Source: Escherichia phage slur07. From it: a DNA stretch of 64,000 bases. A program made the position numbers and the translations under genes. Below the pieces are notes generated by a model that searched no databases, was not told the origin of the DNA, and saw only the letters and a list, made by a program, of their open reading frames with translations. Below, in pieces: positions 14,532 through 44,507 of the stretch (positions are counted from its first letter, which is position 1; each line of letters opens with the position of its first letter). The stretch is from the sequence record NC_028780.1. The stretch is one strand, 5' to 3'.

Positions 14532-14774
14532 ATGACCAAGCGTAAAGAATATATGGAGGCTGCTGAAAAGGCAGTCCGTGAATTAGCAATAGCTTATTAT
14601 AATGAACATGGTAAATTTCCTGATAGATACAGCGTGCTTAAATCTGCTTTAACTCGTTCATATAAAAATATGCTATCAGAAGTAAGTGATATTATATACA
14701 AACATAAAGAACAAACGGGCCAAAGTCTTGATTACGACGAGACTTTTAAACAAGTACTAGGAATTAAGGAATAA
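14532..14774 (+). CDS. hypothetical protein
   Basis: 80 aa ORF immediately upstream of nrdC. Confidence 0.4.
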
Positions 14775-14776
14775 AT

Positions 14777-15040
14777 ATGTTTAAAGTATATGGTTATGAT
14801 AGCAACATTCATAAATGTGTGTATTGCGATAATGCAAAACGTCTTTTGACCGTGAAGAAACAGCCGTTTGAATTTATCAACATTATGCCGGAAAAAGGTG
14901 TTTTTGATGATGAGAAAATCGCTGAGCTTCTGACTAAACTAGGTCGTGATACTCAAATCGGCTTGACAATGCCCCAGGTATTTGCTCCCGATGGAAGTCA
15001 TATTGGTGGATTTGACCAACTGCGAGAATATTTTAAATGA
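14777..15040 (+). CDS. nrdC: thioredoxin/glutaredoxin (NrdC)
   Basis: 87 aa; CVYC active-site CxxC; size and position upstream of gene 49/nrdD as in T4. Confidence 0.8.
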   Translation: MFKVYGYDSNIHKCVYCDNAKRLLTVKKQPFEFINIMPEKGVFDDEKIAELLTKLGRDTQIGLTMPQVFAPDGSHIGGFDQLREYFK

Positions 15041-41495: not shown

Positions 41496-41852
41496 ATGTA
41501 TAGTTCTGAATTTTCATATTTAAAAATGGAAAAAATTTCATACGATTTTATAGATGAAAAGGTTTATTACAGTTTCCATGAACCACGTTTTAATAGTGAG
41601 GTTGGGTTTATTGTAGTAAAAGATAATTTTATTTTAAAAATATATTCAGCATTAAAGGATTTTCATTACGAAAATATTAACCTAAAATTTAATAAAGAAA
41701 ACGTTCGTAATTGCGCAGTAACAATTACAGGAAATAAAGGTACATGTGTTATGCTATCTGATGAAATTAATGATTTGCTAAATGATGCAGAAAATATTAC
41801 TGCACCATCTATTGATGACCAAATTTTTAATGCTTTTATGAATAGAGGTTAA
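41496..41852 (+). CDS. hypothetical protein (61.2 position)
   Basis: 118 aa ORF. Confidence 0.4.
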   Translation: MYSSEFSYLKMEKISYDFIDEKVYYSFHEPRFNSEVGFIVVKDNFILKIYSALKDFHYENINLKFNKENVRNCAVTITGNKGTCVMLSDEINDLLNDAENITAPSIDDQIFNAFMNRG

Positions 41853-41853
41853 T

Positions 41854-42018
41854 ATGAAAACATATAAAGAATTTATCAAAGAAGATATGGTAGCTGGAGA
41901 TTCAGGTGGTAATCCTGAAAATATCTCTACTGGAACAACGTCAGGCGCTGTAGTAAATAAAGGTCCTGAACAGATTCCTAAAAAGAAAAAAGAGGAATCT
42001 AAAGAAAAAGAAGAGTAA
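41854..42018 (+). CDS. small protein with internal-protein-like capsid targeting sequence
   Basis: 54 aa ORF not in track; N-terminus MKTYKEFIKE resembles T4 IPIII CTS MKTYQEFIAE; remainder low-complexity Lys/Glu-rich. Confidence 0.4.
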   Translation: MKTYKEFIKEDMVAGDSGGNPENISTGTTSGAVVNKGPEQIPKKKKEESKEKEE

Positions 42019-42020
42019 AA

Positions 42021-43049
42021 ATGTCATCAATACCTTGGATTGATAATGAGTTTGCATACCGTGCATTAGCTCATTTACCTAAATTCACACAAGTAAATAA
42101 TAGTTCAACTTTTAAATTACGGTTTAGATGTCCTGTTTGTGGAGATTCAAAAACCGACCAGAATAAAGCTCGTGGATGGTATTATGGTGATAATAATGAA
42201 GGAAATATTCATTGTTATAACTGTAACTATCATGCACCAATCGGAATATATTTAAAGGAGTTTGAACCTGATTTATATCGTGAGTATATCTTTGAAATAA
42301 GAAAAGAAAAAGGTAAAAGTCGTCCAGTAGAAAAACCTAAAGAACTTCCTAAACAACCTGAGAAGAAAATAATTAAATCTCTTCCGTCATGTGTTAGATT
42401 AGATAAACTGGCGGAAGACCATCCAATTATAAAATATGTAAAAGCTCGTTGTATTCCAAAGGATAAATGGAAATATCTTTGGTTTACAACCGAATGGCCT
42501 AAATTAGTTAATAGTATAGCACCCGGAACATATAAAAAGGAAATACCTGAGCCTCGTCTTGTTATTCCAATTTATAATGCTAATGGAAAAGCTGAGTCTT
42601 TTCAAGGACGTGCATTAAAGAAAGATGCTCCTCAAAAATATATAACCATCAAAGCTTATCCTGAGGCAACAAAAATCTATGGAGTCGAACGAGTTAAAGA
42701 TGGTGATGTATATGTTCTAGAAGGACCTATAGATTCACTTTTTATTGAAAATGGTATAGCTATTACGGGTGGTCAATTAGACCTAGAAGTTGTTCCATTT
42801 AAAGATAGACGTGTGTGGGTTTTAGATAATGAACCTCGTCATCCTGACACTATTAAGCGAATGACTAAATTAGTTGATGCAGGAGAAAGGGTTATGTTTT
42901 GGGATAAATCTCCCTGGAAATCAAAAGATGTTAATGATATGATTAGAAAGGAAGGTGCAACCCCTGAACAAATTATGGAATATATGAAAAATAATATTGC
43001 CCAGGGGTTGATGGCTAAAATGCGGTTATCTAAATATGCTAAGATTTAA
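42021..43049 (+). CDS. 61: DNA primase gp61
   Basis: 342 aa (T4 gp61 length); N-terminal zinc ribbon CPVCG...CYNC; TOPRIM EGPIDSLF. Confidence 0.9.
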   Translation: MSSIPWIDNEFAYRALAHLPKFTQVNNSSTFKLRFRCPVCGDSKTDQNKARGWYYGDNNEGNIHCYNCNYHAPIGIYLKEFEPDLYREYIFEIRKEKGKSRPVEKPKELPKQPEKKIIKSLPSCVRLDKLAEDHPIIKYVKARCIPKDKWKYLWFTTEWPKLVNSIAPGTYKKEIPEPRLVIPIYNANGKAESFQGRALKKDAPQKYITIKAYPEATKIYGVERVKDGDVYVLEGPIDSLFIENGIAITGGQLDLEVVPFKDRRVWVLDNEPRHPDTIKRMTKLVDAGERVMFWDKSPWKSKDVNDMIRKEGATPEQIMEYMKNNIAQGLMAKMRLSKYAKI

Positions 43050-43246
43050 ATTAACCCAACTAAAGCAAATGCTAAATCTACGAATGTATCAAGAGTAACT
43101 ACTGGAATATTAATACCATGTGCAATTGCAACAGGTGATAAAATAAAGTTCCAGAGTAAAATTCCTACCATAGCAGAAATAGTAAAAGCTATACGTTTCT
43201 TATTACCTTTTATGGCATTAACAAGTGCCATTAATTTTTGTACCAT
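43046..43246 (-). CDS. antisense small membrane protein
   Basis: 66 aa minus-strand ORF, strong SD (ggagg 5 nt before ATG), two hydrophobic helices; occupies the 61-56 gap. Confidence 0.45.
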   Translation of the reverse strand: MVQKLMALVNAIKGNKKRIAFTISAMVGILLWNFILSPVAIAHGINIPVVTLDTFVDLAFALVGLI

Positions 43247-43259
43247 ATGTCCTCCTTAT

Positions 43260-43283
43260 TGCTTTATATATTTATTGTATAAT
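43260..43283 (+). promoter_or_regulatory. putative MotA-dependent middle promoter for gene 56
   Basis: TGCTTTA 43260-43266, 11 nt, TATAAT 43278-43283. Confidence 0.55.
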
Positions 43284-43317
43284 TAATCTACTAACCCATG
43301 AATTGAAAGGAAAAATA

Positions 43318-44039: not shown

Positions 44040-44245
44040 AATTTAATTTTTATGCATGGCAAAAAGCCGGGAGACCGGCTAGTCGAGCATTTGGTTCTGA
44101 TGGATATAATATTAGAGCCCATTGGAAATTTAATGCTCCAGACGATTATTCTCCGGTAATTATTAACGGCGATGTTGTTATATTAACTAAAATTGGATAT
44201 TTTACCGTTCCGCGAGAATTTATTATAAATAATCATGTAATTTAA
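44036..44245 (+). CDS. hypothetical protein
   Basis: 69 aa; ATGA-coupled. Confidence 0.4.
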   Translation: MKFNFYAWQKAGRPASRAFGSDGYNIRAHWKFNAPDDYSPVIINGDVVILTKIGYFTVPREFIINNHVI

Positions 44246-44261: not shown

Positions 44262-44507
44262 ATGGCTAGTACTCGCGGTTATGTTAATATCAAAACATTT
44301 GAGCAGAAATTAGATGGAAATAAGAAAATTGAAGGAAAGGAAATTTCCGTAGCTTTCCCTCTTTATTCTGACGTTCACAAAATTTCTGGCGCTCATTACC
44401 AGACATTCCCTTCAGAAAAAGCAGCATATTCTACAGTATATGAAGAAAATCAACGTACTGAATGGATTGCTGCAAATGAAGATTTGTGGAAAGTAACTGG
44501 TGAATAA
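44262..44507 (+). CDS. soc: small outer capsid protein Soc
   Basis: 81 aa; sequence recognised as T4 Soc (MASTRGYVNIKTFEQKLDGNKKIEGKEISVAFPLYSDVHKISGAHYQTF...). Confidence 0.8.
   Translation: MASTRGYVNIKTFEQKLDGNKKIEGKEISVAFPLYSDVHKISGAHYQTFPSEKAAYSTVYEENQRTEWIAANEDLWKVTGE

Follow-up and report, generated by a model that had tools for sequence, protein, structure and literature searches.

T4 gene 61.1 and its counterpart in Escherichia phage slur07 encode a small conserved protein that resembles a capsid-targeted prohead protein and shares the cleavage junction and N-fist of gp23

Assembly of the T4 head is among the best-studied morphogenesis systems, and the capsid-targeting sequence (CTS) of its internal proteins (IPs) serves as a tool for packaging foreign proteins. 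Small peptides are also found inside the head; internal peptides II and VII are made by the prohead protease gp21 from scaffold and core proteins (gp67 and gp22). gp21 cleaves C-terminal to Glu (PMC5694885). The N-termini of T4 IPII and IPIII are both MKTYQEFIAE, while that of IPI is MKTFKEFTST. Mutagenesis of the IPIII CTS assigned residues 4 and 7 mainly to targeting and residues 8 and 10 to processing (review PMC9026906), and virtually any protein linked to the CTS has been reported to become encapsidated (PMC7697877). Maturation of the shell protein gp23 removes 65 N-terminal residues by a cut after Glu65, and 10 N-terminal residues are cleaved off gp24 (PMC9546572). Residues 66–91 of gp23 constitute the N-fist (PMC7136217), which in the expanded head touches four neighbouring subunits and helps to build the Soc site, and which in the unexpanded head lies in a disordered state in the shell interior, probably against the scaffold (PMC7136217, PMC9546572, PMC9958956). 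Before expansion, the longer segment 66–105 is located within the head, where it is probably in contact with the scaffold (PMC9546572). The capsomer openings measure 14–17 Å, and scaffold fragments leave through them (PMC9546572).

Here we describe a 54-codon open reading frame of Escherichia phage slur07 (NC_028780.1) whose predicted product appears to combine an IP-type leader with the gp23 N-fist. The window, i.e. the whole stretch of DNA that was analysed, comprises 64,000 nucleotides. The locus contains the following elements:

41496–41852, plus strand: ORF 61.2, a 118-aa variant, with its stop 1 nt before the 61.1 start
41845–41848, plus strand: GAGG, Shine-Dalgarno/ribosome-binding site as read from the sequence, 5 nt before the 61.1 ATG
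41854–42018, plus strand: ORF 61.1, ATG start, 54 codons and a TAA stop, translation MKTYKEFIKEDMVAGDSGGNPENISTGTTSGAVVNKGPEQIPKKKKEESKEKEE
42021–43049, plus strand: gene 61, DNA primase, starting 2 nt past the 61.1 stop, the conserved downstream neighbour

A 54-aa reading frame just upstream of gene 61 had been proposed in the original prediction, and an ATG-initiated frame was indeed found on the plus strand with exactly these boundaries. The last codons of 61.2 overlap its ribosome-binding site, and the GAGG context also occurs in two identical loci (L015 and L016). The window represents a segment of a Tequatrovirus genome: the 801 bases around 61.1 are 98–99% identical to the best-matching T4-like phages, and the gene order 41, dmd, 61.4, sp, 61.2, 61.1, 61 is identical to that of T4. 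The best-matching Tequatrovirus genomes annotate the ORF at 41854–42018 as 61.1 or hypothetical, and T4 gp61.1 (NP_049649, 'hypothetical protein') is identical at 52 of the 54 positions. PHROG 1823 ('unknown function') matched residues 1–54 with E=7e-34, and Pfam scans with the short and long forms of the protein returned no family. We concluded that the ORF is T4 gene 61.1, which is already annotated as a conserved small protein without an assigned function. The literature found on gp61.1 consisted of gene lists only, and an older notice of the leader similarity is possible in the T4 genome review or the 1993 work on ORFs 61.1–61.5.

gp61.1 is a small, probably disordered protein consisting of three parts, a leader, a copy of the N-fist, and a Lys-rich tail:

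41854–41883, plus strand: codons 1–10, leader MKTYKEFIKE, IP-type capsid-targeting/propeptide-like, ending at the putative P1 residue Glu10
41884–41967, plus strand: codons 11–38, gp23 N-fist paralogue, DMVAGDSGGNPENISTGTTSGAVVNKGP, matching gp23 66–93
41968–42015, plus strand: codons 39–54, 'EQIP' followed by a Lys-rich mixed-charge tail, EQIPKKKKEESKEKEE, conserved in character

The leader is identical to the IPII and IPIII N-termini at 8 of 10 positions, well above what chance would give, and keeps all four mapped CTS positions (Y4, F7, I8, and E10). The IPIII leader used in the initial comparison was correct, as the T4 IPII and IPIII sequences both start in this way, and the likeness to the IP N-termini held up in the alignment. 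The two positions at which 61.1 differs from IPIII, K5 and K9, each have a natural counterpart among the leaders at the ip loci of phage JS98: K5 in its ipIII (MKTYKEFIAE) and K9 in an ORF without annotation (MKTYQEFIKE). In ipI, the first 7 residues and the first 22 nt are identical to those of T4 61.1. We scanned every ATG, GTG, and TTG with at least 25 codons after it; of the 1,894 candidate starts that the window contains, 61.1 alone had a CTS-like pattern. Among 4,837 starts in the T4 genome, an MKT[YF] N-terminus was observed for ipI, ipII, ipIII, and 61.1 only.

A wider pattern, M-x-x-Φ-x-E-Φ-Φ-x-E, matched exactly five T4 starts, those of gp24, Alt, IPII, IPIII, and 61.1, compared to about 0.7 expected from composition, a significance that is overstated since the motif was defined after the sequences had been seen. 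When the motif was rebuilt from the four known substrates alone, the 61.1 of the window still matched. Two of these substrates are encoded elsewhere in the T4 genome:

NC_000866, 107323–108606: gene 24, leader MAKINELLRE, hydrophobic/Glu spacing as in the IP CTS
NC_000866, 123454–125502: alt, leader MELITELFDE, hydrophobic/Glu spacing as in the IP CTS

Both have the same leader architecture as 61.1, but gp24 and Alt are large, established head components processed by gp21, whereas for 61.1 this is predicted only. The I-K-E↓D context of 61.1 (↓, established or putative cut) is compatible with a cut on the C-terminal side of Glu and lines up in register with LTE↓A of gp23. At P1', 61.1 has Asp, as opposed to Ala or Ser in gp23, gp24, and the IPs; in Alt, too, the tenth residue is followed by Asp, its cut there being putative. 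The common spacing of hydrophobic residues and Glu suggests that the IP CTS, the propeptides of gp24 and Alt, and the last residues of the gp23 propeptide may represent one element that is recognised in prohead entry and/or in cutting by gp21. An AF2 prediction placed a short helix at residues 4–13 of 61.1. The region upstream of 61.1 shares no promoter/RBS cassette with ipI, ipII, or ipIII, and the gene is located between genes 41 and 61 and not at the ip loci, which are near gene e or the 57B/tRNA genes. A comparison of the 61.1 leader with the IPs of the same phage, performed for JS98 only, revealed no covariation, the 61.1 leader being the more divergent. Judged by its N-terminus, 61.1 resembles, and may be, a CTS-bearing prohead protein, although one encoded outside the ip loci.

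Beyond the leader, the protein is related to gp23. BLASTP aligned residues 2–38 of 61.1 with gp23 57–93 without gaps, with 16 of 37 residues identical (E=1e-8). A 61.1 family HMM searched against all T4 ORFs retrieved 61.1 itself and then gp23 58–94 (E=1.2e-7), with IPII and IPIII next in the ranking and below threshold. Searched against 177,635 distinct PDB sequences, it retrieved T4 gp23/gp23* chains only (E=1.2e-5), and the profile of the long 61.1 forms matched gp23 with E=1.3e-9. At the offset of 55 between the two proteins, Glu10↓Asp11 falls on Glu65↓Ala66, and the annotated mature peptide of the KVP20 capsid protein is cut in the matching register (LNE↓AVVNGD). 61.1 and gp23 have the motif G-D-x-G-x-N-x-x-N-I-x-x-G-x-T-S-G-A-V in common, but gp23 has His and Tyr (GDHGY) where 61.1 has Ser and Gly (GDSGG), and past a Gly-Pro 61.1 runs into its Lys-rich tail while gp23 continues with the N-arm and the conserved MGMVRRAIPNL. 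The part following the leader had been described as a low-complexity Gly/Ser/Thr peptide, which the alignments contradict, as it consists instead of a conserved gp23-homologous cleavage junction and N-fist. We concluded from these alignments that residues 2–38 are a paralogue of the gp23 propeptide end, cleavage site, and N-fist. A test for covariation between the module and the gp23 N-fist of the same phage gave no consistent signal. With 54 aa, of which only 37 align to gp23, 61.1 lacks the HK97-fold body (A, P, and I domains) and is therefore not a capsid protein, and AF2 predicted no fold for it.

Two further observations concern the relationship to gp23. The gp23 propeptide ends in AFGSFLTE, in which Glu and aromatic/hydrophobic residues fall at positions matching the CTS. 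In addition, several public records label 61.1 homologues of 50–160 aa as 'major capsid domain-containing protein' or simply 'major capsid protein' (e.g. H52, H69, H71, and H93; P0002, P0006, P0020, and P0043). These labels are due to the 37-residue similarity to the gp23 N-terminus and represent a misleading partial-match artefact; the automated label is spreading through phage annotations and is corrected here.

Selection was estimated on 19 distinct short-form 61.1 coding sequences. dN/dS was about 0.10 for the N-fist-like core, 0.22 for the leader, and 0.17 for the whole ORF; in the tail segment pN was 0.43 and synonymous sites were saturated. Thus, the core of 61.1 is under strong purifying selection. 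The Lys/Arg-rich character of the tail occurs in all homologues, while its sequence is not conserved. Phage records with a tblastn match to 61.1 numbered 1,431; among the weakest matches, a minority are possibly gp23 itself. The hosts of these phages include Escherichia, Klebsiella, Aeromonas, Acinetobacter, Vibrio, and others. A profile search of 1.84 billion representative proteins yielded 50 divergent 61.1 clusters. The Glu preceding the module was invariant in the 16 short forms, 46 long forms, and 49 divergent representatives read, and the residue two positions before it was hydrophobic in nearly all members examined, giving the junction consensus I/L/V/M-x-E↓(D/E/S/A)(M/V)(V/I)(A/S)GD, in keeping with the specificity of T4 gp21.

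The family occurs in two principal forms. In the long forms (PHROG 2086), found in Slopekvirus, Lazarusvirus, Schizotequatrovirus, and Ceceduovirus, a helical N-domain of about 100 aa takes the place of the 10-aa leader, whereas the junction, the module, the Lys-rich tail, and the locus are the same. No relatives of this N-domain were detectable, and a search for a remnant in T4 or the window (e.g. in 61.2) gave no match. A JS98-type short-form locus and one long-form locus agree in the upstream gene, spackle, and primase, with 80% identity between their modules, which indicates that the N-domain and the 10-residue leader interchange at one locus. Such an interchange fits both being removable N-terminal propeptides. 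Many of the very divergent short forms have CTS-like starts (MKTFNEL, MKSFTEFV, MKTIKELIED↓, and MIKFKDFVES↓); other short forms have divergent leaders, such as the JS98-type MKSFKEVMNE (V7/M8) and MTLLEKYKQSLSE. As the long forms and some short forms are devoid of an IP-type leader, the conserved function of the family cannot need an N-terminal CTS. We concluded that this function resides in the module and not in the leader. Three longer family members, P0095 (247 aa), P0109 (251 aa), and P0113 (149 aa), have a second CTS-like motif after the module and tail (MNEVSNFKQFVEGLE, MNEVLGFKAFMEG), which precedes a further domain of about 100 aa. PHROG scans of these extra C-terminal domains returned nothing informative. 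The three proteins might have arisen when a 61.1-like gene was joined to a CTS-bearing gene downstream of it.

The explanation that we tentatively favour, at somewhat less than an even chance, is that gp61.1 goes to the prohead, where gp21 processes it to an N-fist-like peptide of 44 aa. According to this model, gp61.1 would join the core of the assembling prohead via its leader and/or its gp23-like junction, the latter corresponding to the gp23 region facing the scaffold. gp21 would remove the leader after Glu10, in register with the gp23 cut, and thereby free a 44-residue N-fist-like peptide starting at Asp11 (DMVAGDSGGNPENISIGTTSGAVVNK). The freed peptide might remain with the DNA, leave the head via the capsomer pores, or act at N-fist or scaffold contact sites by occupying or competing for them. 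We infer prohead entry, gp21 cleavage, and the later role of the peptide from sequence relationships; gp61.1 was not among the T4 head and core components given in PMC9546572, PMC5694885, and PMC7697877. Counting against the model are the Asp at P1', the long forms without an N-terminal CTS, and the expression of the T4-type gene, with its early mRNA and no exact late-promoter box in the window or in T4. A disordered 44-mer could escape through openings of 14–17 Å, so retention in the head and injection are doubtful. The predicted product would also differ from internal peptides II and VII in that it would have a small gene of its own and would imitate the shell protein.

Morphogenesis genes are expected to have a late promoter of their own. 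An exact late-promoter box, TATAAATA, was found 21–29 nt upstream of 61.1 in 11 of 21 related loci. These 11 boxes are the sole occurrences on that strand in 66 kb, and several of the other related loci have one-mismatch versions at the matching place. No exact TATAAATA was found between 39 and 43 kb in the window or in its 41–61 cluster, nor at T4 61.1; the only plus-strand copy near the locus is located at 44224–44231. The closest element at the locus itself is:

41837–41844, plus strand: TATGAATA, one mismatch from TATAAATA, at −17, of doubtful function

In T4, the 61.1 mRNA belongs to the early class, gp61.1 has no protein class in the time-resolved proteome, and the ip genes are classified as 'early RNA, late protein' (PMC9697503 supplement). 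Early transcription among accessory and anti-defence genes (dmd and sp) in T4-type phages would fit a role in which gp61.1 is never packaged but remains in the cytoplasm, mimics the gp23 N-terminus or serves as its decoy, and thereby tunes head assembly or blunts defence. It would do so by occupying a partner that otherwise binds the gp23 cleavage junction/N-fist, such as gp21, the scaffold protein gp22, an assembly chaperone, or a host factor sensing capsid protein. We consider such a role unlikely, though it deserves to be taken seriously. Across family-level divergence, the modules were identical to gp23 N-fists at 10–21 of 33 positions and to each other at 13–23 of 33; they are thus as similar to the N-fists as they are mutually, which suggests a shared binding constraint. 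Capsid proteins are known to act as defence triggers (PMC9712102), and the folded helical N-domain of the long forms could be an effector. However, a decoy that stays in the cytoplasm leaves unexplained both the T4-type leader, which is otherwise exclusive to prohead-processed proteins, and the late-promoter box directly upstream of the gene in many relatives. One particular decoy has a defined target in gp23: the Gol peptide, which has a conserved core of about 29 residues, is the region of gp23 that activates the Lit protease. The most conserved gp23 stretch, MGMVRRAIPNLIAFDICGVQPM, is likely the Gol region and starts beyond the part common with 61.1. As the module stops just before it, 61.1 most likely lacks Gol, and a Gol/Lit decoy role is unlikely.

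A bolder version of the prohead model, which we regard as speculative and unlikely, treats 61.1 as a free-standing N-fist plus cleavage-junction module that uses a code common to gp23, gp24, Alt, and the IPs. The code for core docking and gp21 cutting would read M/x-x-x-Φ-x-E-Φ-Φ-x-E, with the cut after the final Glu, and the freed peptide would contribute to head maturation in a structural or regulatory way. It might take up, or compete for, N-fist or scaffold contact sites, e.g. at those vertices that lack an ordered N-fist or any N-fist at all, or explain unassigned internal density. The CTS of the IPs would, under the same assumption, mimic the end of the gp23 propeptide, and 61.1 would link the two.

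The leader likeness also raises the possibility that 61.1 encodes a fourth internal protein, the processed peptide of which is kept in the DNA-filled head, injected, and active early in the next infection. Its Lys-rich tail could bind DNA, and lysines of internal proteins have been reported to contact DNA phosphates (PMC3012670). We think this quite unlikely. The processed peptide would be net acidic in the window (7 Lys vs 9 Asp/Glu), short, and is not predicted to fold, and it could leave via the capsomer pores like the scaffold fragments. While the IPs are diverse, globular, basic, and fast-evolving cargos with Ala at P1', the predicted cargo of 61.1 is a 44-aa, probably disordered and strongly conserved segment of a capsid protein with Asp at this position. 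In addition, both locus and upstream region differ from those of the ip genes, and gp61.1 has not been reported in virions (PMC5694885, PMC7697877).

The position of the gene points to yet another role. A 61.1 homologue was found between the helicase and primase genes in Slopekvirus, Krischvirus, Lazarusvirus, Biquartavirus, Schizotequatrovirus, and Ceceduovirus; in these six divergent genera, primase follows directly downstream or two short ORFs on (KP15 and RB49). In the IMG/VR loci examined, primase was directly downstream. 61.1 sits between the helicase and primase genes across the Straboviridae, and in the Aeromonas phages SW69-9 and CC2 and the Vibrio phage VH7D its homologue is the sole ORF between 41 and 61. 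gp61.1 might accordingly be a replication-linked accessory factor at the primosome, its resemblance to head proteins being an evolutionary relic. We judge this to be very unlikely, as gene order is generally conserved among T4-like phages and the same cluster includes gene 40, which acts in head assembly, the strongest constraint falls exactly on the gp23-like module, the late-promoter boxes are typical of morphogenesis genes, and Pfam scans and profile searches with the family forms found no similarity to replication proteins. Finally, 61.1 is very short and has neither a Pfam family nor a reported phenotype, but a non-functional gene fragment or chance ORF has a negligible probability and is effectively refuted by conservation and purifying selection (1,431 tblastn records, 50 divergent cluster representatives, dN/dS of 0.10–0.22, near-saturated synonymous sites) along with a good ribosome-binding site.

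Returning to the favoured prohead model, 61.1 is a candidate for an additional gp21 substrate, in which the predicted cargo copies the shell protein's own N-terminus. By combining a CTS tag with a copy of the capsid junction and N-fist, it would add a candidate component or regulator to the prohead. The comparison further suggests a simple sequence rule for core entry and cutting that is common to gp24, Alt, the IPs, and gp23, and it offers a concrete hypothesis for the origin of the CTS.

Additional CTS-type leaders were encountered in JS98 (L036). In the gap equivalent to that of T4 ipI, two unannotated ORFs are located on the minus strand, one of 97 aa at 14554–14261 that starts with MKTYQEFIKES, and one of 69 aa at 14843–14634 with a GTG start and the N-terminus MKSYKEFLTEA. 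The annotated 'hypothetical' proteins orf112, orf114, and orf135 also have CTS-type leaders. Taking unannotated and annotated leaders together, JS98 appears to have at least six genes for CTS-bearing proteins within a 22-kb region.

The flanks of 61.1 and gene 61 vary among relatives. In the window, primase and gene 56 are separated by 268 bp (43050–43317) compared to 1,149 bp in T4, where the gap houses the dam methyltransferase gene; a tblastn search with T4 Dam gave no match within the 64-kb window. At this gap, the window has a 66-aa hydrophobic ORF on the minus strand (43046–43246) and a terminator-like hairpin (43212–43231). Further downstream, about 2.2 kb from 61.1, an 81-aa ORF at 44262–44507 lies 30 nt downstream of the TATAAATA at 44224–44231; we take this ORF to be soc, which encodes the small outer capsid protein. 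The Soc site on the capsid is built in part by the gp23 N-fist, the element that is copied in 61.1.

The ORF upstream of 61.1 is polymorphic as well, encoding 118 aa in the window, 208 aa in T4, and further variants elsewhere, including L021 (577–1095) and L028 (320–979). The 61.2 proteins of the window and T4 are weakly similar but have an identical C-terminus, SIDDQIFNAFMNRG, and 61.2 variants that otherwise look unrelated share an ending of about 13 residues, (S)IDDQIFNAFM(N/K)R(G/D). This shared ending may mark a recombination junction or reflect a constraint from the 61.1 translation-initiation region. In L018, two consecutive ORFs (159–731 and 733–1092) both have the shared 61.2-type ending.
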